DNA from: Neocallimastix sp. 'constans'
Taxonomy: Eukaryota
NCBI GenBank assembly: GCA_050613775.1
Contig: JBODTK010000014.1
Location: 310,001-374,000 of the forward strand
Reading direction: 5' to 3'
DNA length: 64,000 nucleotides
Of the stretch, positions 76 to 44,852 are shown piece after piece. Numbering within the stretch: position 1 is the stretch's first letter; each line of letters opens with the position of its first letter. Under the pieces are notes generated by a model. That model was not told the origin of the DNA. It did not search any database and worked only from the letters and a program-made list of their open reading frames with translations. The translations under genes were made by a program, and so were the position numbers.

Positions 76-10844
<10,769 letters not shown>

Positions 10845-13730: not shown

Positions 13731-16436
13731 ATAATTATATAATATATAATATTTCATTTTATGTATTTTATTTTTTATTTTTCATTTAAATCATGTTATT
13801 TTATTATTATTATAAATTAAATAAAGTATTCTCTATGTCTAATAAAAAAAAAAAAAAAAGAAAAAAATTATTTCATTATTTAATATTTAATATTTATTAT
13901 TTAATATTTTATTTATTATTTATTATTTATTATTCAATTATTTATTATTCAATTATTTATTATTTAATAGTTAATTATTTATTTATTTATTATTTATTAT
14001 TAAATTATTTATTATTTATTAATTAATATTTATTATTTAATATTTATTTATTTATTATTTATTATTTATTATTTATTATTTAATTATTATAATTTTTTAT
14101 TTATTAATTAATAAATACTCTTTTTATTATTATTTACTAATTATTATTTATTATTCAATTATTTATTATTCAATTATTTATTATTTAATAGTTAATTATT
14201 TATTATTTATTATTCAATTATTTATTATTTATTATTTAATAACATATTTATTTATTATTTAATAACATATTTATTTATTATTTAATAACATATTTATTTA
14301 TTTATTATCAATAATTTCTCTTTTCATTTAATTATAATTCTTCAAATAAAATCAATTTTCAATCACTATTATTTTACTATATATAAATAAATATACAGAA
14401 AAATTATCATAAAGAATAATATTAATATTTAAATTTTTTTTTTTTCCATTTTTTCCATTTTTCCATTTTACCTTTATCTTTTTTATCTTTTTTTTTTTTT
14501 TTTTTTTATCTTTTTCGATGATAAAGAGAAAAATGAATAATCATTATAATTTAATAATTTAATAAATTAATAATAATAATTATTGATATAAAATGAAATA
14601 TTCAAACCTTAATTAATATAAAATTAGTTTTTATTATTCAAACATAAATTAATGTCATAAATCAAATTTAAATCTAATGATTTTACAACAATTTCAATAT
14701 GTGGCTTGATTTCTATATATTAATTATATTTATAATTAATAATAAATTTTATATCATAAAATCAATGTTTTAATTATATTCTTATTATTTTATATTTATT
14801 TATATACAGTTATTAAATATTTCCTTAAATAATAATTATTAATAGTTTATTTTAATCACAAGAACAATTAATTAAATAGTTAATTATAACTAAATATCAT
14901 AAAAATAAAGCATTTCTCTGAATTAAAAGAAATGTCGCTGTCGTAAAGTTGTTTTATTAAGTCTAGTTAAGATTAAAAGTTATATTATGTTTAGTAATGT
15001 TTAGTTAGTTTGTAATTAAAAATATAAGAAAGTTATTAAATAGCCTTTTTAAATATATGTAGTTTTTAAATAAAATTAAATAAATAAATAATAAACTAAT
15101 AAATTTAATAAATAAATCCCAACAAAAGTGCATCGAACTTTTGAGCTGTATATCATTATCCATTCTTTATTATTAATACAATTTTATTTTTTTTTTATAT
15201 TTCATTATTATTATCCTTTATCAAAACATTATGGCACTATCAGCATGTTGCATAATCAACTCTTTTTCCATTTTTACAAATGATTATTTAAAATAATAAA
15301 ATTTATTATATTTCAGTAATTCAAACGAAATGAAACCTAAATCTGTAAAATAAATATAATTTATTATTATTATTATTATCTATTTTATATACAGAAATGA
15401 AAGAAAAAAGAATTTTTTTCTTTATATTTATTTTAGTTATAGAAGGATTTATCCTATAAATGGAAAGTATTATTAGTCACACAAAAAATAATTTATATAC
15501 AATTCATTTTTATATTAAAATACCAAGTAATTTAATTAATTAGTAGATAAATATATAAATAATTTAATAAATAAATTAATGCTTAAATTTTAAATAATGA
15601 AATAATGAAATAAATAAATATTGGTTTTATTAAATAAAAATTGGAAAATAAATTTTAAATAATAATGAAATTAATAAAAGATAATTAAAATATTTCAATA
15701 TTAATTAATTATTAAATAACAAAAAAATAATTTTCTTAATTTAATAATATTAAAAAAATAATAACAAATAGATAATAAATATTATTATAAATTAGATAAT
15801 AATTATAAATTAGATTATTATACAAAAAATATTATATATATATATAATATTAAACTTAATTCTTTATTTTTTTTTTTTTTTTTAAACTTTTTCTCCTTTC
15901 AGCACAGAATATAATTTATAATGGGAATAGAATTTGAAAAGAGATCATAGAAATAGGAATTGGGAATATTCTCTAATTATATGATTTTCATTAAAAAAAA
16001 TTTTTTTTATATTAATTAAATATAATAATATAATAATTTAATATAATAAAAAAGAAAAAAAAAATTTTTTTTTTGTTTTTGTTTTGTTTTAATAAACAAA
16101 AAAAAAAATGAACACAAAGTCATAAAAGCAGAGAAAATTAATTATTTTAAAATGGCAATAAAGTAATGAGTAATAATAAAATTATACAAATTTAATATTA
16201 CTATTCATTTTATTATTATTATTATTAAACTTTTAATTATTATTAATAAAACCTTTTATGTTTATTAATTAACTTTATATTATTATTAATAAACCTTTAA
16301 TTATTATTATCATTATTATTATCATTATTATTATAATTATTATTATAATTATTATTTTTTTATTAATTAATGATATATATAATATTTTTAATCAATCAAA
16401 ATAAATATACTATTTTTTTTTATTTTATTATTCTTT

Positions 16437-16471
<35 letters not shown>

Positions 16472-16866
16472 TTATTTTTCATTACATAATAAATATTAAA
16501 TTGTTCAATAATTAATAATTAATAATAATATCATTAATCTTATTAATCAAATTATGATTTTTTATTATCAAAATATTTCTATTTTATAACTATTTAAAAT
16601 AGTTTAAAAAGATTTCATATCAAATTATTAAAAGTTTAACAATAATATTATTTTTTTTTTATTTTTTTTTTATTTCATTATTTTATTATTTTATTTTCTT
16701 TAATCTTTAATAATATTCACTGTGTAATTATTCATTGAATATTATTTAAAAAAAAAAAATTCCATTACTTTATATAATTATGTTGTATCCCCAATTATTG
16801 TTTTATATTTAAAACATTTAAACTTTTTTTTATTTTTTATTATATATTTGTTATTTGTATTCTCTT

Positions 16867-16903
<37 letters not shown>

Positions 16904-19840
16904 TTTTTTAATTTCTTTTACTGATAGAATGTAAATTCAGATGGTATTTCATTTTATAACAGCAACCAGTTACAGCAACTATAACAAAAAATAATAAAAT
17001 ATTTATTTAATTATTAAAAGAGATTAATTAAACTTAAATACTCTTTTTATTATTCAATTATTCCATTATTCAATTTATTTATTATTGATTATTTAATTAT
17101 TTAATTATTTATTATTCAATATTTAATATTTATTATCTGTTATTCAATTATTCCATTATTGATTCAATTATCTATTTATTCCATTATTAATGTTAATTCA
17201 TCATTTTCATCAATTTATGAGGTTTAAAACTTAAAAAAAAATTTTAATTTGGATTTAATTTAATGAAAAAAAAAAAAAAAATCCAATTTATTATATTTTA
17301 GGGAGTAAAAGCTTATTTACTATTAAAATAAATTTTGTATTTATTTTGTATCTAATTTTTATTTTCCATTTCTTTAATTAAATCTTTTTTTTTTTTTTTT
17401 AATTGTTTGTACTTGTTTGTACTTGTTTATGTTGATTTTATTTATTTTAATTTATTTAGAGATGAAATGAAATCTTTTTTACTTGTTTGTACTTGTTTTT
17501 GTTGATTTTATTGATTTTATTTATTTTAACTTATTTAGAGATGAATAAAATAATAGGATAAAAAGAGCAAAATAAGGAACAATTTAATATTTAAATAATA
17601 ACAGTCATTAATAAAATTTTAGTATTCTTTCTCTCTTTTCATTAAATTATATAATTGTTTTAAATATATTTATATATTTAAATGGTACTTGTGCGGTGTT
17701 AAAAGTCGGTCAAAAATAAAAAAATTTTTTTTTGTTAATATTTTTTGATTCTTTTAAAAAAAAAAATTCATAATTTTACTATAGAATATTAAATTATTAA
17801 TTAGTTTAATTACTAATACAATTTTCAATTAATAAAAATTAGGGGAATTATTAATATGAAATTTTATAATTATGTTATATTATATATTATATATATATAC
17901 ATTATTTAATTATTTCATTATTTACTATTTATTATTTATTATAAATTAATTATTAATAAATACTCTTTTTATTATTATTTAATATTTATTCTTTATTATT
18001 TATATATATATATATAGAATTCAAATGTTTTATAAATTCAATATTTTATAGAAAGAGTAAAAAGGTTTTAAGTCAAGTCAATTTCCCATATTAATCATAG
18101 CAACACATACACTGTATATATGGTTCAATTTAAATTTAAATTGACATGTTTCTATTTAAATAAAAAAAAAAAAACATAATAAATAAATATATATATCATG
18201 TCTTAACTTTTTATTTTTACTTTTTTTTTTTTTTTTTTAATATTTAAAAGGTTTTTCGATTTTCTTTTTTTTTTTTTTTTTTTTTTTTACTTTATTTCCA
18301 TTCATTTCTAATATATTATTCTAATATATTAATAAAAGATGATCTATTATGAATATAATCTAATATATGTAGACTTAATTAATAAAAGTTTTTATATAAT
18401 TTTTATTTAATTATATTAAATTTTGTTTATTTTATGACAAATAAATACTTTTAATAATTTTATAATTCTTTTTTTTTCAATTTATATGCCTTAATAGGAA
18501 TATAGAATACTTTATTTATTTAGATATAACAAATGCATTTATTTAATTCTAATATAATGATTATATTGGAATTATTTAAATTTCATGATATTCATTGATA
18601 TATGTATTTGGTAAATGGCCCATTTGATATATCTTCCAACCAATATAAAAAATAAATTAAAAGTATTGTATTCATTAGTTGACACCTAAAATTTTAATCC
18701 TAAATTTATATTAAATAAAGTTTTTTTTCCATTTTGTTAGAAATAAAGTTTAATGAATGGATATTATTACTGTTGTAAATCAAAAAACCATAAATTAAAA
18801 TACTTTATAAAAATAACATTTTAAGTTAATTAAAAATAATTAAATGGAAAGATTTAATTCAAAGAAAAGAAACATTATTATAAAATTAAAATTAACAAAA
18901 GATTATATAAAAGGAATTCATTTTTTCTTTTTTATAATTCTTTTTTTTTTTTTTTTTTTATAAAAAATTAAAAAGAAAAAAAATTATTATATATAAATAT
19001 ACATATATGTATTTTATTGATAGAAACATATGTATATTTATATATTTAAAAAATATATTTAAAAAATTTTAAATTTTTTTTTTTTTTTTAAAGTATAAAA
19101 TTAAAAATATCAAAATTTGATATTCATAATATTTAATATACTAGAAAAATTAAAGAATATATCTCAATTATATTTATTTTTTATTATTTTTTTTTAATGT
19201 TGAAAAATATTTATTATATTATACTATTTTAAGAATTATTTTATTTATTTATTTATTTTATTATTATTATTATTTTTTTTACGTTTTTCATTGTAAAATA
19301 ATAAAATAGTACTTTATATTTTTTATTTATTTTTTTTTTGAAAAAAAAAATGAATAGTATTGATATATAAATATTTTTTATAAATCAACATAGAAAAGAA
19401 TTTAGTAATTCATATTTTTTAAAATTTCTAATACCGTATTAGTTATTATAATAACAACAAATAATAAAGAAATTTTATAAAATAGTGAATAATATTTATT
19501 TATTTATTAAAAATTCTTTATGTTAAGAAAAAATAATAATAATAATAATAATTAAAGGTTAAACAAAAATTATTGATAAATACTAATAAATATCTACTAA
19601 TTAATTGAAAATAATAATTAATGAATAATACAATATCTGTAATATAGTATATCTAATAGTATCAAGAAAGAAAAAACAAAATATGTAAAAATTTTATATT
19701 ATATTTATTACTTTTTATAATATTATATTTTTTTAATACATATTAAAAATATTATTATAATTTTAAAAAAATTATAATTATTATTAAAAAAAAAAAAAGA
19801 TAAATAATTAATATTTTTAAAATAAATAATAGATAACATT

Positions 19841-22712
19841 ATGGATTATTCAGAAAATAATCAAAATAAAAAAAAATGGAGACTTTCTCACACCATGAAA
19901 ATATACCTTTTAACTTTACTTATAACTTATGGGGTGGTACCATCTATAATTGTCCTGGTTATTAGGTATTGTCTCTGATTATTACTTTATATATATAAAA
20001 TCATTTCATCTTAATATAAAATTTTTATATAATATTTTTTTATTTTTTTATTTTTTTTTTTTTTTATGGTAATAAATATAGTAAAATTATAATAATAAAA
20101 AAATTATAAACATATATATTTTATAATATATATATATATAGAAATTTAGGTAATCTCAAATTTATGCCTCATACTTTTAGAAATAAGCAAAAACCTATCA
20201 GTTTAGAACTTGCTGGAATGATATCTTTATTACTTTTAATCATTTATGTATTTTTTTTGTATATATTTTGGAAAAAAAGAAATCATCCTTTAATAAACTA
20301 TCGTCCTATCTTACTTTGTATAAACACTGGTTTTTGGAGTGGTGTTTATAACGTTTTATTACCTGTAAGTTATTTTGGTAATAATATAAATAATAAATAT
20401 AATATAATACCTTATATAAATTTATTAATTTAATAAATATATATATATATATATATAATTCCTTTGTTTATTTATTATAATTTAAAATTAAAACTATTAA
20501 AATTTTTTGTAATTAATATTAATATATATATACCTATTTATATATATATATTTATATATAAATTTTTTTTAAAAAAAAAATTAAAAAAAAAAAAAAAAAA
20601 AAGATTGTATTAGCAATTACAGAAAAAAGAAAAAAGGAATCTATAGATAATACTAGTCTATGTTTGATTCCTTTAATACTAACTATTCTTCTTGCCCCAA
20701 TGAGTATGATGTCTAATTTATCAAGATATGTAAAGTTATTTTTATTAAATAAAAGAGATGTTAGTAGATTAAAGTTATTTAATGAAAAACAAAATTCCTC
20801 ATTTCCAATTAATAATAATGGCTTTGAACCAAATATGTATGTCAAACGTTTAAATAAATTAGTTAGTCGACAAATTACCATAAGACTCTTCATTATTCCT
20901 TATATTATTTTAATTAGTTTAGGAGGTGTTATCATTTCTTATAAATATTTCTCTGATAAATATAATGATCAATGTCAAGACGTAAATCACTACATCTATC
21001 TTGAAGATGGAAGGAAAATTAAGGATGATAATTCAAATTGTGGTTTATGTAATCAAGGCTTTATATTATATGCTCCAATTTTGTTTTTATCCTTAATCAC
21101 CAGTTTTATCATTCCATATATTTATATTAAACTCTATCATGTACTTAATTTTGTAAATAAACTTGATATCATTTTACACTTACTAGGATTATATGCAGGT
21201 ACTTTTCTTTTTATAAGTACATTATTCTCCATCAGTTATAAGAACGCTATTGTCAATGAAAATTCCGAAAGTAATATAAGATTTTATTTATTATCTCGAA
21301 TGAAAAATAATCAATTATTTTTTATCATTCCTGGATTTGTTTCATTTATTTGTGCGGTGATCATTCCTTTAATTGAAGTTTGGTATTTCGATAAAAAAAT
21401 TAAAGATAAAAAATTACTTACGAAAATGGAATTCACTAAACTTTTAATGAAAAGTAATTACATTGATTCCTTGAAATCTCTTGCTGTTAAATCTTACTGT
21501 GTGGAGGTTATTCTTTTCTGGGATGTTCATATGAAGTTAATGAAGCAAGTCTACAACGAATATATTAAGATTTATGAGGAGAAACAATCTCTTTATAATC
21601 CCGTGAATCCTTCCTATAAATCACCTATTGGTAGAGGAGATAGTGATCCAAGAATTGGTAATTGCAATAACAACCATTACAACAACATCAATAATAATTA
21701 TAATAACAGCAACGATAATTACAACTCTAACTATAACAGCAACGACGGAAACTATTATAATAATGGTAGTAATAAAAATAATAGTTTAACAAAGAAGTCA
21801 GGTAAAACCATTTCTTCTCCTCATCAATCCAATAATGATTTATTATTGAATTTAAATAAAAATATCTTTGGTAGAGATAATGAAAGAATTCTTTATGCTG
21901 GTTGTGGCTCTAATAGCATAAACAGTAATCTTTCTGATTTAATTAATAATATTGTAGATGAAAGCTCGTATCATCAAATTAATTATTATGAAAGTCAAAC
22001 AGAGAGTACCATATTAAGTTCTAGTAGTATTAGTAGAAGTGGTAGTAACCAAAACAGAGAATATAGTTTAGATGATATGGATCATAATCTTCATTATCAG
22101 AGACTACCTAGTAATACTCTATTCGATTCAAGTTTTCCTTACAACTCTAAATCTTATATGAATCAAGGTAATGATAATGGTGGTTATGATGATAATAAAT
22201 GTCTTCATAAAATAAATAGTTTACAGAGTTCCCACAGTACCTTATCTCCATTACCTTATGTAAGTTATTCTGAGGTTATGAATAGTGATAAAGCAGGTCT
22301 TCTTAATCATTCTGAATTTCATAATTTAAATAACATGAACGATTCAACTCATGATATCATAAATGCTTCTAAAAGAAATGGTAGTTTAAATAGAATGACC
22401 AGTTCGTACAATCAAATCAATAGAAAAAATCCAAATTATGATGGTCATACAGATATCTATTATGAACTTTTTAATGTAAATCCAGAAGAGGTTGAATTAC
22501 CTAAAGAATTTTGGAGTGAATTTAATAAAGTCTATCATTCTTTCATATCAGATAAAAGTTTAGCTACTGTTAATCTTGATGATAATATATCCATTAAATT
22601 AGATCAAGCGATTAAATATGAAAGATATACCATTGATATGTTTTTCCCAGCTATAGCAGAAACTGTTAATTTAATTTATCAAAATTTGTATCCAAAAATA
22701 GTTGTTAACTAA
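19841..22712 (+). CDS. 7TM-RGS protein (GPCR-like membrane domain plus regulator of G-protein signalling domain), 3 exons: 19841-19965, 20142-20364, 20604-22712 (~818 aa)
   Basis: The exons join in frame across GT..AG introns. There are 7-8 hydrophobic helices with RNHPLINYRP after TM1. RGS N-half: IDSLKSLAVKSYCVEVILFWD. RGS C-half: VYHSFISDKSLATVNLD..DMFFPAIAETVNLIYQNLYPK. Confidence 0.82.
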
Positions 22713-23187
22713 AATTTATTTAAAAAAAAAAAAATAAAAAAATAAAATAAAAAAAAAAAAAAAAAAAAAAAGGATAAAAAGTTAAATAAAATTTAAATAA
22801 AATTAAAATAGAATATAAATAGAATTAAAATAGAATTAAAATAGAATTAAAATAATCATTATGATAATAATTCTTATAATAATTATATTAATAATAATTA
22901 TGATAATAATAATAATAATAATAATTAATAAAATTAAATAAAATAAAAATAAAATATAATAAAAAATAAAATATAATAAAAAATAAAATATAATAAAAAA
23001 AAAAAAACATTAAATTTAAATATAAGTAGAAATATATAAAAAATATATGTATATATATATAATATTAATGATAATATTAAAAACAAGAAGAAGAAAAAGT
23101 GAGGAAAAATAAATATTAAAAACAAAAAATAGAGTAAAAAAGATTCATAGCTAGTCCTCCTAATACATTTTACACAAATAATAATAA

Positions 23188-26100
23188 TCATTCATTACAC
23201 AACGAATTTAAGGAAATTGAATCTCCTTGATAGCCCTTCTCCTGGTTTAAGGGAGAGTTTAGTTCCATATTTTTAATGTCATTTTCATCAAAATTAATCA
23301 AATATACACTGTTTGAATATTCAGACTTAGATAGCATTGCTTTAAAATCATTAATAGTTCCATTGAAATTCATGATAAAGGAAGCACTTTCTTCTTCACT
23401 AAATTTATTATTGTATTTTTCAAAAAGTTGAGATAATATTTTCCAAACATCGGTGATTTTTTCAGCATTATTGTGCAAATATTTGGGATTAGAAATATCA
23501 TTATAATTATCATAGTATGGTAAAATATTTTTTTTATCGATATTTTTTTTCTTTAAATAATTTCAATGAATTAATTAAATTACTCTCAATATTTTTATCC
23601 GATGATATACTCACGATGCTATCACATGAACTCCCAGAGCTATTTTCCCTTTTTGTTTTTTTGCACAATTCCTAACCTTTGGCACATTTTATAATCATTA
23701 GTTTTTTGAAACTACCTTATTAAGTAATACAAATTCATTATCTAATTGATATAAATGGGCTGCGTTAATTCCAATACCATTTATTGTACCTGGAATATTT
23801 ACTGCAAAAATATGTTCATAAATACCATTACCAACAGTAAACATTAACGTTTTATGTATAAATCTTTAGAATTGTTACTATTTTCTAATGGACGATTTAG
23901 ATAATTCCCAGTAATTTTTCTAAAATTGAAGAATAGAGGTTTCGTATTTTCATTAACAGTATTATTAAAAAATCCGATATAAGGGTGAATATATTTTTCC
24001 TTTAAAAAATGCATTTTTAATGCGTCATTATTAATATTTTCAATGTTTTCATTCTCATACTTACTTAAATCTTTCGTAATAGATAAGTATTGTTCGTTAT
24101 ATTTTAGACATGGGGTAATAGAATTATCAAAATAATTTAGTAAGTCATTAAACTTTCTAAGAACATTATAGGATTGACTAATAGCTCTATTCACACTTTG
24201 AATAATTCTATTTAAGTCATTAGTTACATTATTACTAATTGCATTTACTACATAATTTTTAAATTCATTGTAATAACTTTTATCTAATACATTATTTTTA
24301 TTTGTGAACTCTTTTAGGGTGAAACCTTTTCCTAAACAATTATCTAAAACATATTTTAAATTTTCTCTTATATTAACATCATGTTCATTATCGTATCTGA
24401 ATTTAATATAATCATACTGTGCTCTATAATTAACTGTAATTTTTTTTATATTTTACATTTCCCCCATTTTTTAATGAATTTAGTATTTCAGTGAATATTT
24501 TTCGATTGTTATATGAATTAATAGAAATATCAACTATATTGTACTGTAATATTTTATTAGCCCAACGATTTGGATCTGTAAAATCATGTAATTTCTTTCG
24601 TCCATCATTATTATTATTATTAATGGTTAAATAATTATATAAATTTGCTAATTATTGTGGTAAATTTGTATTTTTTTGATCATCTGACATTACATTAATT
24701 AAATAATCTAATACATCAACCCCCTTTATTGTTTACATCATCTTGCTTTAATATATATTTACAAACCCCATTTTTATTAATTCTATTTAAATCAGCAACA
24801 TTAGTATCAGGATCTTTGTACTGATATCCTTTCATTTTATATTCAGTAATTAATGTCCCTAAATTAATATCATCAGCTTGAGGTATATATATATTTTACC
24901 TTTAAATTTAGGATCCCTGAATACGACTCCTGTTTTTATATTGAATGCTAAAGATTTATCTTCAAAATAACCTTTATTTGAAGGATCGTTAATATGATAA
25001 TTTTTTCTTCCAAAAAATTTATGAATACTTTCCATATTCCTTCTTGTTTCATCATTTGAACAAAAAGACATAGCATATAAATCTTTAAAAATAGTATTTA
25101 AATTGTTACGGTTTGATATTTTTGCTAAAACCTTTTTAACATTTTCGTTAGATCCATTTAAGTGCAAATTCAGTACCAGGATTGGAATTTATATGTCTCT
25201 GTAAATCATTAATAAAATTATCTATTTCAGATGTAGTTAATTTAGAAGACTTAACATTACCCTTTAACATAGTTGATAATTTTGTGATATCTTCAGAATT
25301 TAATGATGGTTTTGTTGAAAACAAATTTTTAATTAAATTAAAATCAAAAATATTATTTTGACGGTTATATTCAGTTTGTTCTGGAATTTAATACCATTTC
25401 TATACTATTATTAATTTCATTATTACTAAATGAAACATTTTGGTTAGGATTACTATTTGATTTTGATATATATAAATCAATTAAATTAGAAGCTATATTA
25501 TTAGCTAATCTTAATTTTTTGTTCAATTGTTAAATCATAATTATTATCGTTTGCATAGGTTTCCAATTTATCAAACATATATTGTTTTAATAAAATATTA
25601 GTAGTATTAATTTGTTCTTTTTCATCAGAACTGAGATTTCTAATAATTGAATTTCCTCTTATTCTATTGCATTCATTTAAATAATCATTAATAATATTAT
25701 TATTACCATGATTACTTGAATCGGTAAATAAATTATTTAAAGAAGTTACATGACTATTTATATTTGTATTAAAAATAGGAAGAATTTTATAAAAATATAC
25801 TTCTTTTGAAGCAAAATCGTTATCCACTTCATATTCATATTTTCCATCACTACTTAAACTTTTTATTACAGTAATTGGATGAGCAGTTGTAATTTTATTA
25901 TAACTATCATTTATTAATAAATGATATCTTTCAATGCCATTAATAATACTTTTGAAAATACTAACAAGGAAAGTCTTAGAACTTGGATGGTTTGTAAAAT
26001 AACTTTTACATATATCGTCATTTTTACATTGTAAAAATATTCCCGATAAATCTTCTTTACTAATATAATCTATGGGTTCATTAATGTAGCTTGTTTCATC

Positions 26101-26318
26101 TAAATGTTCTCTATTACTATAATTTGTATTTCCTTTATTTTCAGGAAAATCATTTCTTGAAGCATCATTTACATATTTCATAATTTCTTTCCAATACTGA
26201 CATAAGTATTTCCCCTTCATTATTCTCAGATAATTATGTTAAAAAATTGTATATTTATCCGAAAAATGGTAATGGTGGTGATTATATTAAAGAAATTAAA
26301 ATTTTCAATTAAGCTCAT
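23188..26318 (-). pseudogene. Large (~1000 codon) frameshifted intronless ORF of unknown function, presumed viral
   Basis: Successive minus-strand ORF pieces (25501-26220, 24859-25167, 23844-24194, MFTVGNGIYEHIFAVNIPG.. at ~23700-23843, 23188-23478) are linked by coding-like sequence with frameshifts and no splice signals. It could be more than one gene. Confidence 0.55.
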
Positions 26319-26534
26319 ATTAAAGTATTTGATATACAATAATTTCGCTTTTTACGAAATATTTTATATTTTGACATATTATAAAAAAAAATTTAATAAT
26401 ATTTCTTTGTCAATTTTAATAATATTTTTTCATTTAAAATTTTTTAAGTTTATATAGTATAGAAATATAAATATTATTTAATTTTTAAAAATGAAATATT
26501 TAAATAATAAGTAATTGTAAAGTTTTATTAAACA

Positions 26535-27420
26535 ATGAATATAGAAAAAGAAAACAATACTGAATTATTTTTTAAAGAATTAAAGAGTAAAACATGTAAC
26601 CCTGAAATATTATATAATCTTTCTTTAAAGGGAATATATTTATATAAACCTTTATATTTATATAAAAGAATAAAATATCATGAGTATGTAGTAGATATAA
26701 GTTTTACCAATCAATATGAGACCATCTATTCTAGATTCTAGCAACACTACGATTCATAATAACGTAACAACATTATATCAACGTGTATTAGATCTCAACT
26801 ACCAATATCAAAATGGAAATTTAATTAAGTCTGTCTATATTGTACGTGCGTATAATTTATACAAGAAAATTTTAGGTATTCGTAGTAAAAACGATTCGGT
26901 TGAGGATGCTAATAGAAATTATATTAAACAGATGTTATCAGGAAAAAATGGTATTTTCCGAAGTATGTGTTTAGCTAAGCGTCAAAATTTTTGTCTTCGA
27001 AGTGTTATCGTGCCAAATATTGATATCCCTTTAGATGTAGTATTAATTCCTAAAGTCTTTACTGATTCCTTAATTCCTTATGGGTATAAAACCAATGACT
27101 TTGTTATCATCAATAGACAACCTACACTTCAAACTACTTCAATCTTAGCCGTTCATTCTCGTCCAAGTAACTGTCGAACCATTCAGATCAATCCACTTAT
27201 TGCTAATGTCTTTCAAGCTGATTTTGACGGTGATGAAATGAACATTTTTTTGGTTACCGGGTGAAGAAGCTAAAGAAGAGTTGGCCACAAAATTAAATAT
27301 TGCAAATAATATCCGGTCATTTAAAAATGCTTCCATTATGATCAAATTTATACAAAATACTTGAACCGGAATTTATAATATGGCACGTAATAAAGAAATT
27401 ATTGATATTGATATTTAAAA
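26535..27420 (+). pseudogene. DNA-directed RNA polymerase largest subunit (RPB1/beta-prime-like), compact, frameshifted and 3'-truncated
   Basis: Motifs in canonical order: LPINMRPS, LSGKNGIFRSMCLAKRQNFCLRSVIVP, VIINRQPTLQ, INPLIANVFQADFDGDEMNIF, then after a frameshift PGEEAKEE..IQNT*TGIYNM (equivalent to QDTLTG). Frameshifts at ~26700 and ~27250. Confidence 0.9.
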
Positions 27421-27439
27421 CTTTGTCTTTATTGTTGAA

Positions 27440-28495
27440 ATATCGAGTATAATAATTACCAAATAATTTATTATAATTTATCTTTATTGGAATGTTAAAG
27501 TGGAGATCGCTTCCGATCATGACCTCATTGTGAAAATTGATATAAAGAAAATATAAATATTTGACTATTATTTTGATCGTTGAATACATATACCATTGTA
27601 CCTCTTGAAATTGGATAGTTTCATTAAAAGTTTTCCATTTATTATATAAATTCATAACGAAAGATGTTCTTATATATATCAAGAGTATAAATTACCTTTT
27701 CTGCTAAAGACATTACATTAATACTTTCATTCGTATATATATTGAAAAATAGATTGTATTTGAGAAGCATCATATCAAATAATTGAAAATTTATACTGAT
27801 AGGGTAGTTAAACGTTACTTTTAAGGGATCACATTCAATAAAAACATCATCAGGAGAAATATTAAAGGAAGATAAGATTTTCAAAACGATATCATGCGAC
27901 TCTTTTACGGTAAAAGTTATTTTACTTTCAGTTATCAATATATTATCATGGCATAATTTTATAAGGATATAATTTTCCTTACTTTCAATACTTTTTAAAA
28001 TTGAATTATCATCATTCATTAGTCCTTGTTCATAAAGATATGTTTTATTGAAATAATCATTATAATAGTGTAAGTAAGTTAACCCTCCAATATTACAAAT
28101 AATATATTGTGCAGTTTCTGATAAATCTAATTTTATCAACTCCTTATAAACTATTTTAAAGCGTTGAATTGGAATATCAATAGTGACGTAAAACAAAGTT
28201 TTATAGTTGTATCATTCAAGTAATATTTATATTTTATACGTTTATTGTTAACAATACTTTCTAATCTATCAATTAACATAAACATTATTTTTTGTTGATA
28301 ATCAATATTACTAATATCTATATCTTTATTATCTATACATTTAATGATATACCTATCTTTTGATAACTGATTACAATCAATGATATTTATACCCTCGAAA
28401 AAATAATAAATTTTACCATTTATATGTATTTCCAATTGTAGAGGAACTGAATGATAATTTACTAAAATACTACGGATAAGATTTATAACATTCAT
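27440..28495 (-). pseudogene. Frameshifted ORF, possible N-terminal part of an NCLDV early transcription factor large subunit (VETF-L/A7-like)
   Basis: Three overlapping minus ORFs (28151-28495, 27642-28196, 27317-27682) join through frameshifts. Segments FNYP..FDMMLLKYNLFFNIYTNES, IIVKYLYFLY and KLFGNYYTR resemble, from memory, VETF-L blocks ending in LF..Y[ST]R.CQ. Not verified by search. Confidence 0.4.
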
Positions 28496-28995
28496 AATTT
28501 TTTATACTCAATATAAAAATATAATTTTTACCTATAAAAAAGATAATAATATTTCTTGTTTTGTTATTTTAAATCGTACTTAGAGTAAATTTTTTATCAT
28601 TTTAAAAATCAACTATGAATTATTATATTTAAATAGATATATAATTATTTTTTTTTTTTTGTTGAATTTTATTATTTTTGATTTTTTTTTATTTCATTAT
28701 TAAATTTGACAAGGCTATTTTTATTTAAGTACTACAAATATTTTAGAAAAATTTTTATAATATTTTTTTTTCTAAAATGAATTTTAAAAAATTTAAAAAT
28801 TTGTTAAAATCTAAATCAAATTTATAACTAAATTTTGGAGAAAAAAAATATTAAGAAATATTCTTTTTAAAAACTTTAAATAGATATAACAAATAAATAA
28901 TAGAAAGTAAATTAATAAATTAAATAAATAAATAAATAAAAATAAATAAATAAAAATAAATAAATTAATTTAAATAGATTAAAGATTAATATAAT

Positions 28996-29247
28996 ATGGA
29001 TAATATTTCGATGAAAGCATTGGATAAATTTTTTAAAGAATCATCCTTATTTAGTGAAGATAGGTTAAGAGAGAAAAATAAATTACCAGTATTAGATGAT
29101 GAAAAAAAGGAAATAAAAAAAAATTCTATATGTTGTAAAAGATGTAATAATAATAAATATATTGAGTTGAGACGTTTATAAATTCGTAGATGTGATGAAG
29201 AGGCCACTATAGTATATTATTGTTCAAACTGTAAAAGAGTTATTTAA
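28996..29247 (+). pseudogene. TFIIS/Rpb9-type C-terminal Zn-ribbon transcription factor (83 codons, one premature stop)
   Basis: Reading through TAA at 29179-29181 gives CKRC-NNNKYIELRRL-(Q>*)IRRCDEEATIVYY-CSNC: a CxxC..QxRxxDE..CxxC ribbon. A CAA>TAA change explains the stop. Confidence 0.8.
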
Positions 29248-29831
29248 AACTTTTATTTAATTTATAATTTTTTAATAATATTTAGATTTAAATAATTTAT
29301 TAATTTTAAATATTTAATAAATATTATTTAAATATAATTCATTAGATATATGTCCAATTAAAAATATGGAATTTTATATTCAATTCAACTTTTATAAAAT
29401 ATTAAAATTATAATTTTGGTTTAAAAAAAAAAAAAATATGAATAATTTTAATGTTCACTTAAATTATTTTTTTTGAAATTATTATACAATATTATAATAT
29501 TACTAATTAATTATAAATATTCGTTTATATGAAATGAAATGAATTTAATATAAGAAAATATGTATATTATAATATAAATTTGTAAATATTTTAATTTTTT
29601 TTTAAAAAATAATAAAATATAATAATAAAATTAATAGTTTATAGTGATTAGGGGTTCATACAAAAAAGAAAAAAATTTGACATAAATAATATATTTTAAC
29701 CATTTCTTAATTTGTTTAAAATGAAAAATTAAATTAAAAATTTAGTAGTAAATTACTCATTAACGTATATAAATTTAATTGAAATTTTTTAAATACAATA
29801 ATTAATGTATTAAAAAGTATTAAAATTTAAA

Positions 29832-30684
29832 ATGCAAAAAAAAGAATTTTAAAAGTTCGGAACAACTTGTCAAGTCGATAAACTCTTCTAATAAATCTAG
29901 TACTTCAAGAATAGATTATTATAATCGTATCTTATCATCATCATGCAGTACAGATATAATATTTCAAAGAATGATATCTACTATAAATTTTAAGGAAGTT
30001 ATACCTTTACCTAAAAATAATAGTATGTTTCGATTTGTTATCAAATGTTTCAATAATACCAATAATGTAATTTTAGGACCTTTAAAAATTAGTTCTGGTA
30101 TTACGTTAACGGATTTACCCTCTTTATCTATTCCAATGTCTCATTACCATCTTAATAAAAACAATTTTGTACAAGATAATTTTATTCATCGAATTTCCGA
30201 AAACGAAACTGAACCAATGAAAAAATTTATTGAACGACTTCGATTTATCGATTCTCGTATGCAAATGCTAATTTCGGATTATATTAGACATATCGATGAA
30301 TCTTCTCCTATTTATAACATGTTAAAAAAGAATAATGTAACATTTAATCAAAATTGGATCTTTACTGGTATTATAAATAAAGGAAATAATAATACCGAAT
30401 ATATTAATATTCGTTACTTTAAAGATTCATTTAAAGGCAAAAAAAAGATTGGTACTAATGTTTATTGTGAAGATGATTATTTGGATGAGATGGCAGATCT
30501 TCTTTCTAGAGACACGTTTTGTTATATTAATGGAAATATTTATCCATTGATAAAAGTAAATTATATTATTATTAATGAACGTATTGTTAATAATATACCA
30601 ATGGTCAATTTTACATGTAAAGCTTACTTTGTAGATATAAACTTTATACCAAATTCAATTCATTGTAGTACTAAAAGATTATAA
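29832..30684 (+). CDS. Intronless viral-like protein, possibly an OB-fold single-stranded DNA-binding protein; 237-aa intact frame from 29971, probable original ATG at 29832 separated by a frameshift
   Basis: Beta-rich C-terminal half (IYPLIKVNYIII..VNFTCKAYFVDINFIP) resembles the pattern of T7 gp2.5-like SSBs of NCLDVs, and it lies in the viral cluster. Function is inference. Confidence 0.35.
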
Positions 30685-31379
30685 ATATATATGTATATAT
30701 ATATATATATTTATATGTTTATAGTAAAAATTTGACAATTTTAATGTTATAATTTCATTGAAATATACTTTAGTAATAACATAATTAAAATTATTAATAA
30801 TAATAATTTTATATTTTTTTTCCTAGTCTAAAAGAAAAAATCAATGTTAAATTATGGTACTTTTTTATAATCCTGTAGGAATGGATTCATTCCACTTCAT
30901 GTTTTTTTTATTTTTCAATTTTTTAATATACTTTTGATATTAATTATCCTTTACACCTTTTTTTTTATAAATATTTTTATTTCTTCACCAATAATTATTA
31001 TATGATAATGTATTTTTAGATTACCTATGTTGGGACGTACTCGATCTTTCCTTATTTTTATAATAAGGTGGTAATTTTGCCTACAAGGGGAATTAACTCT
31101 AAATGTAAAAAAAAAATGATTCCTTTGCACTAGGAAATAGTACATTGGTATTGAAATAATTTAAAAAAAAGAATTTATATTTATATAACTTGTTTTGTAT
31201 AAGGAATTTTTTTGAAAAATTAGAAAACTTGTTTTTTTTTTTTTTTTTTTTAAAGATAATTTTGGATAATAATATATATATAATTTTAAAAAAAAAATAA
31301 TTCTAACTTCTATATAATTATATATATATGTATTTTTATTATTATATGCTAATTATTTAATACATTTTCATAAATTTTT

Positions 31380-31990
31380 ACTTTTAAAGCATAAAGATCT
31401 TAAACTCTCTACTGAAGTTAGCTGGAAATTTTTGTAGAAATTCATTTAAAAAAAAAAAAAACAGAAATAATTTAAACAATTTTCCAAGTCAACGTCTAAT
31501 ATGTTACTTCTTTTTGGAATCAAAATCAACCAATTGGTAACATTTATTTTACCTCAAAATAGATGGCCTGATGCTCGTTCAAAAACTTTCTCTGAACTTA
31601 ATCAATGGTTGAAAAGTCATACTAATAATAACTCTCCTACGGTTCTTGTTGGAGACTTCAATATGCCCTTTGAAAAAAAAAAACTTAAGAAATACATTTT
31701 TCAATACATTTTTTATGACTGGACGATTACAAAGCTAATCTATCTGATGATAATATTACCTTTATGCCAAAGGTTCAAAGTCTTTCATGTTTCATGCATT
31801 GATCACATAATTTATAATAAAAAAAAAACTATAATAGGCTTAATAAAAATTATTTATTTACAATTCATTTAAATTATTCTCAGAACTAATAAAATTCTTT
31901 TCCATATTATTTAAAAAAATAAAAAATAAAAAAAAAAATTAAAGGATTTATTAAATATACTCTTCTACTTTTAGCTCTGACATAAAAAAA
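31380..31990 (+). mobile_element. LINE apurinic-endonuclease (EEP) domain remnant
   Basis: IGNIY/LPQ (frameshifted), TVLVGDFNMP, SCIDHII and SDH (~31975) motifs in order. Confidence 0.72.
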
Positions 31991-33046: not shown

Positions 33047-33969
33047 GATAAAGAAATTTTTAAATGAGCTTTCTAAAAAAAAAATTTTTTTTTATGTGAT
33101 ATTTTTAAAGTTACACAAAAAATAAACAAAAAAAATAAATAATTTAAATCTCCTTTTTTTCCAAGAATAAAATTATAAAAATTTTTCTTATTAAAATTTT
33201 TTTATTAAATCTTAAAAATAAAAAAAAAAAAAAAGAGAAAATTTTGGATTATTTATATAAAAAAAAAAAAAAAAGAATATAAAGTATTCTTCATATATAT
33301 TATAAATATAATGTTTTCTATATTGAATTAATTATTTATATAAATGTAAATATATTATATTTACATTTATCATATATACAATATATTATTTTTATATATT
33401 CTTTAAATTTTTATAATTTTATATTTTTTAAATTTTTTATATAAAAAAATAAATAAATATAAAAAATAAATAAATATAAAAATAAAAAAATTAAATATTA
33501 AAATAAATAAATATAAAAATAAAATAAAATAATTTGTAATAGTAATAATTAATAACATAATAATTAAATAATAATATGAAATTATAATAAATATTTAATA
33601 AATTATAAACTTTTTTTTTTTTTTTTTACTTGTAAAATTTAAAAACAAAAAAAAAAAATTTTTTTTTTCTTTTTTTATTTATGTTAATAAAATTATTTAA
33701 TTCATATTTTAATTGATATCGTTAAATAGATTTATTAATAAATTAATTATTAATAGTTCAATGATAGTATAAAGATTATTGTCATTTTAATACTTCATTG
33801 AAGATTCAAAAGTATAATTAGAGTAAACTATTTTTTAGGAGAGAAAATTAAAGTTTATCTATTTAATGAAAATTGAATTTAAAATTTTATATTTTAAAAG
33901 AAATAAACATTTAATATTATATATTTATAATTTATTATACCAAGTATATTGTAAGTTAAATTAAGAAAT

Positions 33970-33996
<27 letters not shown>

Positions 33997-34000
<4 letters not shown>

Positions 34001-35088
34001 AAGAAGACTTTGAAGAAAAGCAGAAAATATATAAACAAATAAGAAAATTATTAATTCATGGAGTTAATTTAATTGTATTGAAAGAAATCATAGAAAAAAA
34101 TAATATTACACCAAAAGATTTTAGAGATTTTAGTGAACTTCTTGGAATTGCAATTAAATTTAACGCTTCCCTCGATATCATAGAATATTTTATTAACCAT
34201 AGAAAAGGTAAAACATTAAATTTTAATGTAAAAGTTCCTAAAGCGGGAGGTAGATATATAATAATGACCCCTTTAATGATTGCCGTTGCCAATAATAAAT
34301 TCAAAATGGCCAATTTTTTAATTAAAAAGGGTGCTAATATCAACTATGGTATTATAAAAAATGTTAAATATTATTCTATTATTGACATTCTATTTGAATC
34401 AAAGGATCTCAATAAAAAGAATTTAAAATATATATTAAAAAATGGATTTAGTTTGAAACGAATCACCGAAGACTTAATCTTTGAAATCATTCATTCTGAT
34501 AGTTCTTCCCTCTTAAAGATTATATTGGAATACTGGAAATTTGATAATTTTTTTATTTTAAATTTATTAACTTTATATAAAAATGGTGAAAAAGTGTCCA
34601 AAACTCAATTCCAGAATTTAATTGCAAAAGAAGACAATAAAATTCCAATTATTGAGGATATGTATCTGGATGCTATTTATGAAAAAGATATTGATGTTTT
34701 GGAAACCCTTTTCATGAATGACTGTTGTAACAAAGAACGTGTCATAAAAAGAATAATTAAATATAATTTATTGGAAATATCAGTGGCAAGTGCCAACCGT
34801 CACTTCATTTTTAAAATATTACATTTTACCCCATTAACTTACCGAAATGTAAACTATATCAATATTCTCTCGGACCTCATTATTGATACATTTGATGACT
34901 GGAGAAAGGGAAAACAGGATTTTATCAAATATGTTATTCAATTATTTATTTATCGTTCTTCAAGATATGATTCTCATGATCATCACATTGAAACACAAAA
35001 TAGTAGCACTAACGCAATTCTGTATCAAAATAAAAATAATCATTTTAATAAAAACATTAATTTAAATAAAAATAACTGTAAATCTTTA

Positions 35089-35167
<79 letters not shown>

Positions 35168-36729
35168 GCGTTAATAAAAGAAGTCCATGGATGAGAACGT
35201 CCTTACACGGATTCACTTACGATATTCGATATTTAAATTTAATGATAAATATTGCTATAAAAGTTGGTTGTTTTCCAATGATTGAATATTTAATTGATAG
35301 TAAAGATTTTAAATTATCAGTAGAAGATATAAATACTCGTGATATTAACGGGGAACTATTAATCATTTCTGCATTTTATAATGAAAAATTAGAAATATTT
35401 AACTATCTTTTAGATCATGGGGCCGATTCAAATGCTACTAATAAAAATGGTGTCCCATTACTCTCTTTAGCTATTCATAAAAATGATGTTGAAGTTATTA
35501 AATCATTATTAAATAATCATGTAAATATATATAACCTAGATACCAATGGTATATCTCCATTTATGAAAGCTGTCAATAAAAATTATTCTGATATTGTTGA
35601 ATTGTTTACTGCCTATGGAAATAAAAATCATATTAATATATTAATGGATGAAATGAACACTGATTCCTCAACTATACTACAAGAAGATGCTACTCTGAAT
35701 GATATCATGAATAATGATAATAAAATAAATGATCATTCCATCAATGAGGAGAATAGTGATATTACTTTAATTAATAATAACCCACTCCCTCCTAATCCTC
35801 GTAATGTTTTTAATGGAAATTCACCATTGATAAAAGCCATTAAACGTAATAATTTTGAAATGGTATACTCCCTCTTAAAATATTGTAAAAGTAATCATGT
35901 TAATTTAAATATTGTTGATGTTTATGGTAATACCCCTTTAATTATTTGTTATATGAGAGGTTATGAGGAAATCTTTAGAATTTTAGTAGAATATGTAGAT
36001 ATTAATCAAAGAGATATTCAAGGCAATACCATTCTTCATTATGCAGTAGAGAAAAAGGATTTGAAGACAATAAAATGTTTATTAAGTGTCGGGGCCGATG
36101 TCAATGCATTAAATAAATTAGGAGTTACCGTATTAGATCGTGCCATTTCTAAAGGAGAATATAACATCGTAAAATATTTATTGTTAAATGACAGTATTAA
36201 TGTAAATCAAAGAAATAAGAATTGGGAAATTCCATTAATTACCGTGATTAATGATAGTCATTATAGTCAGGTGGAGAAGGAATGTATTGTCGAAAAATTG
36301 ATTGAAAAGGGAACCAATATTAATTTAGTGGATAAAAACAATAAATTCGCTCTATTTTATGCCATTCAAAATAACAATTTTGTAATCGTTAGAATTCTTT
36401 TAGAAAATGGAGCCACTCTCAACATCAAAGATCCATCCACACGTGATCTCATCTGTAATATTCAAAACCAAAATATCGTTAGAATTTTATATAACTATGG
36501 CTTAGAACTCTACAATGCCGATAATATCAATTTTGAAACTTTGAAAAGATTAATTCATCTGAACAATACCCATCTTTTTAAATTAATATTAGATAATAAT
36601 ATCAATATTGATATTAATATGAAAGATAGTAAAAGTGGAAAAACTTTACTTCAGGAAGCCAACAAATATGCACGAATAGAAATTTCCGATTATTTAATAC
36701 AACGAGGAGCTGAAACATCAGTAAATTAA
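33997..36729 (+). CDS. Ankyrin-repeat protein, 910 aa, intronless, with a poly-Asn tract
   Basis: Many ankyrin units (TPLMIAV..LIKKGANIN, GNTILHYAV..LLSVGADVN, GKTLLQEA..LIQRGA); (AAT)n at ~35089-35166 encodes poly-N. Confidence 0.92.
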
Positions 36730-42767: not shown

Positions 42768-44852
42768 TTATAATATTGATTTTTTCCATTTCATTTTTCC
42801 TGAATCATTATTGCATTTGTCAATACGTGGAGTCATGGAATAGTAAACACATAATTTATTATTATTATTATCGGTAAGATGCTTGCCATTAATATCGTAG
42901 ACATCAATAGAGTCTGATGAATAGCCTCCATACATAAATTTATGTTTGGCATTTTCACAATTGACGATGCTAAGGAAGTTATAACCGTTTGTACTGTGAT
43001 GATTACCTAAATCTAAACAATGACTAGATGGATTTCCAGGATTACCATAAGTACCATCGGATAAATATAAGAGAGATGGTTTAGTTTCAGAAGTAACATG
43101 CCATGTACGATATTTATAACTATCATTACTATTTTTATCATGAATATCGAAATATTCATAATTCTTTAATTCCTTAACACCTAAATAGTAATTTAATGTA
43201 GGATCTAATGTCCCTTTGAATTTAATAGTAACATAATTAGAAATAGTTGGTTCTGATTCATCGTTGTTATTAGAAGTTTCATTAATAGAGAATTTTCCAA
43301 GGTAGTTAGCACCTAAGGATTCATTCCAAATATTTTTGTCATCATTAGCAAATCTGATAGGGAAACCATTTAATCCTTTACTTTTAGTTCCAGTAGCAAT
43401 TCTTAAGTATACTTTGTAATTTCCATTTTTCATGCCATTTGGAAGAATTGCTTTTACTTTGACTGTAGTTTTTTCTTTAGAATTCCAATTATTTGGATTA
43501 CCATTTTCGATAGATTGAATTTCAGATAGGTCATAACGGTTATTGTTATTATCAATTACTAAAAGAGAGAGTGATTTTGGTTTTACAAGATTACCATAAC
43601 CAACATTTTCAATATCAACTTCCATTCTAAATATTCCATTACTTTTAGCTGACTTTGTAAGACGAACACCACGAACAACATATCTATAACCAAGATGGTT
43701 TTCAACATAATTGTAACCAGATATTCCCTTATATCTTTTATCAACACCATTATACTTTTTATTTTTTAAGTTACTAATAGTCACGTTATAATGTCCATTG
43801 TTCAAATAACTTGTATGAGTCAAAAATGCTTCTTTGTCCATATAATCAGCTGTAGGACTTACATTACCCATATCATCGTCTTCATCGATACCTCCAAATT
43901 CACCTCCAAATAATGTATGTTTTGCTTGATTTTTTAACCATTTTATTTCTTGTTCTCTATTTTTGTAAGTACCAAGATCACTTTTTGATGCAAGATATCC
44001 ATCATTGTATATACCTACTCTGTAAGCCTTTTCATTTGGTTTTGTAATTTGACTTGAAATCTTGGATAAATCTATATTAGCCCAATCACTGTATATTTTA
44101 GGAGTTCTTACACTTATAGTAAGTGATTCTGGTAAAAATTCTAACCAATTATTAATAACTTTATTTAAATATTTAGGTTTTTCGCTATCCGAGTAGACAC
44201 TACTTCCATGCATTTCACCCCATTTACCAAATAATCCACATTCAACTGAAGCTATGATATCATCATATTTTTTAAGGACTCGGCTTACCTGTTTTTGATG
44301 ATTTCTTACATTGTCAGAAGAAGGATCCTTACTGACATCACCATTGAAACCAGGATCATATGCAAATCTAATTACGATAGTTTTATGATTTCTTTTTATT
44401 TGTTCTAAATATTTATCTAAGAAGGTGAGAGCTTCCTCATCTATAGAATGTTTTTGATAATCAGAAATATCTACTAAAAGTCGAATTAAATTGGTCTTTG
44501 GAATAGAATGATTCTTACTCTTTCTATTTCTTCTTAAATAAATTACTATTTCTGTATAAAAACCTCTATAAGGATTTTGAACCTCGGAAAGAGATTCTAC
44601 ATAACTAATGTCATTTATAGATTGAAAATTACCATTAGATAATTCATCTCTTTTCATGACAGGATTAAAAGAAGTATTCAAAGAATTATAAGTTTGATTT
44701 TGAGCAAGGACATTCTCTGTAGATAAATCAACCTTATCATCCATTTCAAACGAGTAGTCTAAATTTGTATCAAGAGTTGGCTTTCCATAAACCTTAATAT
44801 CTTTTAATAATAATAAAGATACTACAGTTGTAATAGAAGTAAAAAATTTCAT
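42768..44852 (-). CDS. Secreted DUF4874/DUF4832 glycoside-hydrolase-like protein with C-terminal ricin-B-like module, copy 1
   Basis: Signal peptide; NPYRGFY, IRFAYD, GLFGKWGEMH, RVGIYNDGYLAS..DLGTY, FGGE, HTSYLN, HLGYRYV and ENVGYGN motifs; Cys-paired C-terminus (CLDLG, IVNC, LCV, KC..MKW). Intronless. Confidence 0.8.
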   Translation of the reverse strand: MKFFTSITTVVSLLLLKDIKVYGKPTLDTNLDYSFEMDDKVDLSTENVLAQNQTYNSLNTSFNPVMKRDELSNGNFQSINDISYVESLSEVQNPYRGFYTEIVIYLRRNRKSKNHSIPKTNLIRLLVDISDYQKHSIDEEALTFLDKYLEQIKRNHKTIVIRFAYDPGFNGDVSKDPSSDNVRNHQKQVSRVLKKYDDIIASVECGLFGKWGEMHGSSVYSDSEKPKYLNKVINNWLEFLPESLTISVRTPKIYSDWANIDLSKISSQITKPNEKAYRVGIYNDGYLASKSDLGTYKNREQEIKWLKNQAKHTLFGGEFGGIDEDDDMGNVSPTADYMDKEAFLTHTSYLNNGHYNVTISNLKNKKYNGVDKRYKGISGYNYVENHLGYRYVVRGVRLTKSAKSNGIFRMEVDIENVGYGNLVKPKSLSLLVIDNNNNRYDLSEIQSIENGNPNNWNSKEKTTVKVKAILPNGMKNGNYKVYLRIATGTKSKGLNGFPIRFANDDKNIWNESLGANYLGKFSINETSNNNDESEPTISNYVTIKFKGTLDPTLNYYLGVKELKNYEYFDIHDKNSNDSYKYRTWHVTSETKPSLLYLSDGTYGNPGNPSSHCLDLGNHHSTNGYNFLSIVNCENAKHKFMYGGYSSDSIDVYDINGKHLTDNNNNKLCVYYSMTPRIDKCNNDSGKMKWKKSIL

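Follow-up and report, generated by a model that had tools for sequence, protein, structure and literature searches.

The stretch of DNA analysed here (the window, 64,000 nucleotides; positions 310,001 to 374,000 of contig JBODTK010000014.1, assembly GCA_050613775.1) belongs to the anaerobic fungus Neocallimastix sp. 'constans' and carries, at 23190-30690, a segment that is almost certainly a nuclear fundsalphavirus copy, dead and lacking much of its internal sequence; fundsalphaviruses are gut-fungus elements derived from nucleocytoplasmic large DNA viruses (NCLDVs). Six coding pieces make up 6,177 of 7,591 bp (81%), alignment to intact homologs reveals no introns in them, and the same comparison shows every one of the five identifiable genes to be broken. 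A first-pass annotation, made from the sequence alone, had described tightly packed, intronless and broken open reading frames (ORFs) with viral transcription genes between host genes. Its coordinates and gene content proved right; the packing is tight as far as the coding fraction goes, but three AT-rich spacers of 0.24-0.58 kb each break it up. Moreover, a cargo gene that lies outside transcription takes up ∼3.1 kb, or 40% of the segment. The GC content of the segment (0.23-0.31) does not differ from that of host genes (0.25-0.26). Its closest named homologs come from Neocallimastix, which by itself makes that genus the very likely host.

The RNA polymerase (RNAP) catalytic subunit announced by the first-pass annotation is present, with a Pfam Rpb1_2 match (E 2e-20 at 26701-27261) and the DFDGD catalytic motif, but just as an internal fragment (amino acids 180-417 of 719) of an RPB1 N-half, located by alignment at 26700..27415 on the plus strand. 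This fragment has 98.2% nucleotide identity to the intact locus L081, with one frameshift and one stop; only 13 of 723 columns differ, indicating that the insertion is young. It adjoins a 55-codon gene start (MNIEKENN..., 26535..26700, plus strand) that matches no Pfam family and has no place in the intact 719-residue protein P0001. At 27415..27416 the middle of RPB1 is joined to the middle of an early transcription factor (ETF) gene. This junction was placed by contig breaks: contigs of four runs begin or end exactly at 27415/27416, and the loose contig ends in runs X1 and X3 run on into intact RPB1 and ETF genes.

The ETF piece (27416..28501, minus strand) is the 5' half, with two frameshifts, of a predicted large subunit resembling that of the viral factor VETF (VETF-L). 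Its 13 homologs, of which the named ones come from Piromyces, are ∼680 amino acids long. The model of the homolog P0240 has a mean predicted local distance difference test score (pLDDT) of 47, although most blocks within residues 41-150 score 74-87. Foldseek with this model gave eight BFVD matches at E≤0.001, and VETF-large-like proteins of Marseillevirus, Tunisvirus and Pithovirus stood at ranks 1, 2 and 4 (E 3e-5 to 1.6e-4). Sequence comparison did not name the protein, whether by Pfam, BLASTP, phmmer or a 13-sequence profile run against the DUF5757 protein of L001, a locus in IMG/VR. An Atlas match to a phage in GPD, with 120-126 shared features, was rejected as likely due to chance, and the Atlas search with P0240 gave no match. 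The assignment of 27416-28501 as an ETF large subunit, which agrees with the first-pass annotation, is thus a prediction from fold.

Two further genes were identified. The first is a C-terminal zinc ribbon of TFIIS/RPB9 type (28996..29247, plus strand, 83 codons) with the acidic hairpin RCDEE. It has one in-frame stop and, over 28996-29244, is 98.8% identical to the intact homolog P0210, which itself passes the Pfam PF01096 cut-off (E 1.8e-6); a near-identical ribbon, P0209 (82 amino acids), occurs on 30 contigs. The second is a single-stranded DNA-binding protein (SSB) of the NCLDV type (gp2.5/Enc34-like; 29832..30684, plus strand), identical to P0211 at 275 of 283 residues. Its frame is still long and open, and the start codon of the intact copies lies out of frame. 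The AlphaFold (AF2) model of the SSB (pLDDT 85) had six PDB matches at E≤0.001, to CP312R of African swine fever virus (ASFV) and the SSB of phage Enc34, with T7 gp2.5 at rank 10. In BFVD, Foldseek returned 107 matches at E≤0.001; every named entry within the best 50 is an NCLDV protein, and the fold matches take in pithoviruses and ranavirus p31K. The segment thus holds an NCLDV-type set of RNAP, TFIIS, SSB and, from a low-confidence model, VETF, in line with the earlier claim of an endogenous, NCLDV-derived segment in an anaerobic fungus.

The cargo gene (23191..26220, minus strand) is the decayed middle, approximately amino acids 177-1152, of a protein of 1,620-1,756 residues (tblastn with P0186, P0187 and P0194, 52-91%). 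Both of its ends are missing, and it has at least five frame changes in addition to stops. A piece of 108 bp at 26190..26297 (cargo amino acids 146-181, 36/36 identical to P0186 in frame +3) lies inverted on the plus strand, opposite to the remainder. The N-terminus of the full protein is hydrophobic and signal-peptide-like, and no Pfam family matches the protein above the cut-off. An intact cargo protein (P0193, KAG4084023) is encoded three accessions away from an intact RPB1 N-half (KAG4084026) on a 239,886-bp contig.

The family to which the segment belongs has been described by Gong, Zhang and Han 2020 (PMC7017919), whose study is cited throughout for those parts of its text and figures that were available. 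The fundsalphaviruses are pithovirus-related NCLDV elements of 14 fungi, among them five Neocallimastigomycota genomes, so the lineage is not the 'possibly undescribed' one of the first-pass annotation; what is new is a previously undescribed dead member. According to these authors, the elements encode PolB, D5, RPB2, RPB1-C, an SNF2 helicase, uracil-DNA glycosylase (UDG) and a methyltransferase, RPB1 is split, and N. californiae has 26 copies of PolB; this polymerase is of NCLDV type and placed next to Pithovirus, the RPB1 sequences of the group are listed separately from those of Pol I/II/III, and retroelements neighbour the copies (PMC7017919). We found homologs of the segment's RPB1, SSB and ETF on scaffolds of 68,043, 127,315, 168,386, 246,453 and 119,790 bp. 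These sizes equal those of fundsalphavirus scaffolds listed for the same species, a match by size and species and not by sequence; the first four are present in the published RPB1 tree, and PolB is listed on scaffolds holding homologs of the segment genes (PMC7017919). In our 69-row quick tree, the segment RPB1 falls inside a 12-row clade with P0012, P0016 and P0017 (Shimodaira-Hasegawa-like approximate likelihood ratio test, SH-aLRT, 100). The segment, a heavily deleted copy, has no PolB, D5, SNF2 helicase, methyltransferase, RPB2 or RPB1-C, and since it lost PolB, a PolB screen would miss it. In other copies, the gene model P0129 fuses the helicase C domain to RPB1-N, and the methyltransferase P0098 is clustered with P0001.

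With respect to the account of Gong et al. in its available parts, the SSB, the VETF-large candidate, the cargo of 1,620 amino acids, the dock deletion (see below), intactness and high copy number appear to be additions, and we found no follow-up on gut-fungal fundsalphaviruses in the literature searched, a scope that leaves subscription papers outside. No close relative of the family was found in IMG/VR with the RPB1 fragment (18-19 of 64 parts scanned), P0001, the RPB1 alignment or the SSB alignment. The metagenome scan yielded three short contigs with RPB1 alone, the prokaryote genome scan 80 loci, all titled archaeal, and PLSDB only rpoC-like matches under 60%.

The left neighbour of the segment is a host gene (20562..22712, plus strand) for a membrane protein with a weak C-terminal RGS domain (Pfam E 0.016, below the cut-off); it is spliced, as an RNA contig (X15 record 9) joins 20364 to 20613. 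To the right lies an ankyrin-repeat gene (33955..36729, plus strand; Pfam Ank_2 E 1.7e-54), and between it and the segment, ∼0.8 kb from the latter, a remnant of an endonuclease of the long interspersed nuclear element (LINE) type (31471..31872; Pfam Exo_endo_phos E 0.006, below the cut-off). Run contigs were compared with the window over 19500-29500, and none crosses a segment junction there. The chimeric N- and C-ends of the segment's cargo recur in P0185 (N. lanati, 437,659-bp contig) and P0188 (N. 'constans', 1,540,403-bp contig), at places where the intact P0186 differs. That independent assemblies contain this damaged copy speaks against an assembly chimera. As seen from these gene ends, the host flanks of the other assemblies aside, the integration of the segment looks real.

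The intact RPB1 protein P0001 comprises Rpb1 domains 1-5 only and ends early in domain 5 by Pfam. In the alignment, its residue 303 corresponds to residue 374 of yeast Rpb1 and its residue 310 to residue 438, so that yeast residues 375-437, which we take to be the dock domain, have no counterpart. The dock binds the B-ribbons of TFIIB and thereby recruits the polymerase (PMC10881513, in the part available). The spacing of the loop is 38 amino acids in 21 of 21 measurable fungal sequences (of 29), whereas 80 of 81 viral loci have 92-155, and the 71 measurable of 80 archaeal loci have 91-98. The loop is also shortened in L001 (48), P0030 (40), and P0031 and P0033 (30), and P0032 (80) is intermediate. 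In quick RPB1 trees, from which P0024 and P0062 were dropped (motif absent) and which carry long-branch warnings, the dock-shortened sequences form one group (SH-aLRT 98, or 97 when P0031 and P0033 are left out and a mixture model is used); the family stem measures 1.2-3.0 substitutions per site. Host Pol I/II/III have a full-length Rpb1 with a dock, and Pol II also the C-terminal domain (CTD); all of these are wanting in the family RPB1. Given the missing dock region, we infer that the polymerase of the family would start transcription without TFIIB, relying on the VETF-like factor.

Several contigs with related polymerase genes deserve mention in their own right. P0030, P0143 and P0144 (Logan/JGI) encode dock-less RPB1 N-halves of 540 amino acids on contigs of 24,739, 24,754 and 24,857 bp, which may each be a complete 25-kb element with its own RNAP; P0030 was not found in the IMG/VR portion scanned (18-19 of 64 parts). 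P0031 (1,013 amino acids) and P0033 (961) are fused beta-beta' RNAPs on metagenome contigs of 9.5-30 kb, an architecture like that of the yeast virus-like elements (VLEs). P0010 (RPB1-N) and P0169 (SSB) occur in Logan on 30 and 47 contigs, and their common longest contig, of 42,490 bp, may represent a whole family unit, or nearly so. Finally, the contig of L001, L165 and L166 (IMGVR_UViG_3300036715_003133, 7657-40098) is compact and NCLDV-like: Pfam recognizes the dock-shortened RPB1-N, D5, DUF2738, a capping enzyme and DUF5757, and by eye there are ORFs resembling RPB1-C, PolB, a flap nuclease, MutS, dUTPase and a globin.

The first-pass annotation called the segment a fossil, which fits this dead copy and is not supported for its family. 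The P0001 cluster has 75 members, and the full length of 719 amino acids is kept in 13 of the 15 listed. Twelve full-length members stand for at least 25 accessions from two Neocallimastix genomes, with 700-717 of 719 residues identical to P0001 (97-99.7%). The ratio of nonsynonymous to synonymous substitution rates (dN/dS) is 0.29 for a single pair, L081 and L082, over 719 codons, and intact members occur in each of several diverged subfamilies. Judged from its sequences, the family is intact, multi-copy and apparently under purifying selection, and so more than a mere fossil. In run X3, single contigs reach a depth of 4,871 and 5,139 for core genes, 954 for the cargo and 36.8 for a host gene, ratios of ∼135-fold and ∼26-fold that are depths and not copy numbers, the DNA origin of X3 being presumed; the depth is flat over opposite-strand genes and a spacer. 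In run X1, the cargo has a depth of 8-14 against 5 for the host, and this near-host value suggests that the cargo varies between strains. The core depth of X1 (14,800-21,000 in most bins, host ∼5) was set aside as a sum over up to 55 overlapping contigs. Two RNA libraries contain RPB1 and ETF contigs, one of which extends past the deletion junction; DNA carry-over is possible, and we take these contigs as hints that intact copies are transcribed.

The order of genes bears on how the segment arose. Accessions of RPB1-N and SSB are two apart in five listed pairs, once in the order RPB1, SSB, TFIIS, and the Piromyces locus tags are 14683 for RPB1, 14687 for SSB and 14688 for ETF. RPB1 reads toward the helicase (P0129), followed by RPB1-C, PolB, D5, RPB2, UDG and the methyltransferase, the order being taken from the available parts of PMC7017919. 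In Fig. S2 of that paper, the orders of MCOG01000572 and MCOG01000618 look like circular permutations, as given by figure text that carries no gene directions and concerns a sister subfamily. RPB1 stands beyond the SSB in intact copies but beyond the ETF in the segment, which a circle or a tandem array would explain; other rearrangements are conceivable. The mechanism that we propose runs as follows. The element would have its own RNAP (split RPB1, RPB2 and the TFIIS-type ribbon) without a TFIIB-binding dock, recruited by a VETF-like factor made of the large subunit and the SNF2 helicase. Replication would fall to PolB, D5 and SSB, acting on a circular or tandem genome, which would in turn insert itself back into chromosomes. 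For the segment, the circle or tandem would have opened between SSB and RPB1; the replication block would then have been lost in one deletion (27415/27416), and the copy would have decayed. Intact copies would be self-replicating and self-transcribing, and would probably spread without a conventional capsid. The best explanation overall, to which we give a probability of roughly 0.55, is therefore a dead fundsalphavirus copy from a capsid-less, self-transcribing family; the capsid-less and circle-derived mechanism, taken by itself, is close to an even bet.

As for the capsid, the Pfam scan took in 16 ORFs in and around the segment and found no double jelly-roll major capsid protein (MCP) among them, nor an A32 packaging ATPase in the segment, a copy from which much has been deleted. 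To our knowledge, pithoviruses too are without A32; MycoCosm, screened in the second study below, contains gut fungi. In the available parts of Gong et al., all 14 fundsalphavirus host species are absent from the MCP and A32 trees (Figs S9-S10; PMC7017919). The text of Myers et al. 2026 available to us names no Neocallimastigomycota as MCP-positive after a screen of 141 genomes and 2,543 MycoCosm genomes (PMC13533422).

A number of points weigh against this explanation. We detected neither an integrase nor terminal repeats nor a target-site duplication at the segment; the repeats in 22700-31600 are AT-rich low-complexity only, and the segment's own ends are lost. The order in MCOG01000331 does not fit a permutation (PMC7017919, available parts), the permuted orders have the limits given above, and so have the X3 depths. 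The ETF call depends on a model of pLDDT 47 with TM-scores of 0.18-0.26. The absence of a capsid rests on published homology screens, which are blind to a very divergent capsid, and since the family SSB and ETF escaped Pfam, a capsid could likewise be hidden. Finally, L001, the nearest IMG/VR relative, resembles a fragment of a larger virus, with MutS and dUTPase. In ∼32 of the 40 kb of its contig, which is possibly a fragment, no ORF was recognizable as a capsid gene by eye, with no MCP profile search made.

The strongest alternative is possible although clearly less probable: the family could be a virion-forming, pithovirus-related virus with an unrecognized capsid, its intact copies being recent proviruses. 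RNAP, VETF-like factor and methyltransferase form an early-gene apparatus typical of viruses that package their own transcription system, and the long family stem reflects an extreme divergence; the larger-virus look of the nearest IMG/VR relative and the pithovirus-related placement (PMC7017919, available parts) fit as well. Against this, the available parts of PMC7017919 show no MCP or A32 for the host species and the text of PMC13533422 shows none either, the IMG/VR scans with family queries found no close relative, and a variable, large, secreted-type cargo at high copy number fits a genomic parasite.

It is improbable that the family is an old and inactive viral relic, copied passively through host retrotransposons or segmental duplication. 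Retroelements do neighbour published copies (PMC7017919, available parts), the LINE remnant is close by, and there are large host duplications in the window; full-length open frames in many copies, the dN/dS of 0.29, the diverged subfamilies with intact members and the intact-copy contigs in RNA libraries (DNA carry-over being possible) argue otherwise. An integrated cytoplasmic linear plasmid of the yeast type (VLE, pGKL2-like), which the first-pass annotation had also considered, is very unlikely. The fused RNAPs P0031 and P0033 (961-1,013 amino acids) share the dock deletion and the clade in the quick tree, where long-branch attraction is signalled precisely at their join, and the secreted cargo is reminiscent of killer plasmids. 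However, the family RPB1 is a separate N-half of 719 amino acids with Rpb1 domains 1-5 and not a fused beta-beta' chain such as the 974-residue K2ORF6p, and the family PolB is of NCLDV type (PMC7017919, available parts) and not Polisuviricotina-like as in VLEs. Least probable of all are fragments of a host RNA polymerase paralogue or an assembly chimera: although the best PDB sequence matches are fungal Rpb1, the trees contain no eukaryotic Pol II row and no contig spans the junctions, similarity to yeast Rpb1 is patchy, the gene is split and lacks dock and CTD, its neighbours are an NCLDV-type SSB and VETF, the family stands apart from Pol I/II/III in the RPB1 tree of Gong et al. (PMC7017919, available parts), and P0185 and P0188 carry the chimeric ends in two other assemblies.

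Other features of the window were noted in passing. An intronless gene of bacterial type for a secreted-type DUF4874+DUF4832 protein is present in full at 42768-44858 (minus), 51707-53797 (minus) and 56333-58444 (plus), with a fourth, partial copy; these lie in direct and inverted duplications of 3-4 kb with 93-96% identity (42253-64000). An AT-rich stretch of 270 bp, 22710-22982, recurs inverted at 46112-46377 with 70% identity and is probably low-complexity sequence. An intron-split host gene at 2142-8080 encodes a propeller protein of the RSE1/DDB1/CPSF1 type and contains an (AAT)n array of ∼400 bp at 4925-5341.

By itself, the copy described here is an ordinary decayed insertion, and its significance comes from the family, which Gong et al. 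treat as a fossil in the available parts of their paper (PMC7017919). If the intact copies are active and capsid-less, they would represent a giant virus that has become a plasmid or transposon, in hosts that can be cultured. They would then permit a direct test of how the transcription machinery of NCLDVs is handed on to elements without a capsid, and might be a route by which secreted-protein genes enter the genomes of gut fungi. Should they have a hidden capsid, rumen fungi would harbour a DNA virus amenable to culture. More speculatively, and with doubt prevailing over confidence, fundsalphaviruses could be living, capsid-less descendants of pithovirus-like viruses, a few tens of kb in size, with a circular phase, >100 copies, a dock-less, TFIIB-independent RNAP and a large secreted cargo; together with L001, P0030 and P0031/P0033 they might then form a wider, shrinking lineage that parallels, or links to, the transcription system of yeast killer plasmids.

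Among known systems, the Pimascovirales (Pithovirus-like viruses, Marseilleviridae and Iridoviridae) provide the best ETF fold matches and are among the SSB fold matches; they differ in possessing capsid genes and in their far larger genomes, and 80 of the 81 viral RPB1s examined have a loop of 92-155 amino acids, against 38 in the family. The published fundsalphaviruses share with the segment the hosts, the split RPB1 and the homologs of three segment genes on size-matched scaffolds, and differ in having PolB and other shared genes that this copy lacks (PMC7017919, available parts). The inserts of Physcomitrella patens fall within the fundsalphaviruses and carry RP1n, RP1c, RPB2, TFIIS, UDG and PolB (PMC7017919, available parts). 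Their host is a plant, and the likeness is drawn from the published description; another source, in the part available, lists them as pithovirus-like (PMC5294986). The Mycodnaviridae (Myers et al. 2026, PMC13533422) are likewise giant-virus DNA integrated in zoosporic fungi, but they reach 350 kb, are defined by the MCP and are kin to Imitervirales/Algavirales, and the available main text makes no mention of gut fungi; the segment has no MCP, and its affinity, from fold matches and published placement, is pitho-, marseille- or irido-like. The yeast VLEs pGKL1/2 are capsid-less, with an own RNAP derived from NCLDVs and a secreted cargo, and they differ in being cytosolic linear plasmids of 9-13 kb with a fused beta-beta' RNAP and a Polisuviricotina-like polymerase (PMC6211774 and PMC13348850, available parts). 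In its way of working the family may resemble a VLE, in that it would lack a capsid, encode an RNAP of its own and carry a secreted cargo, while the architecture of its RNAP and the type of its polymerase set it apart from the VLEs themselves.

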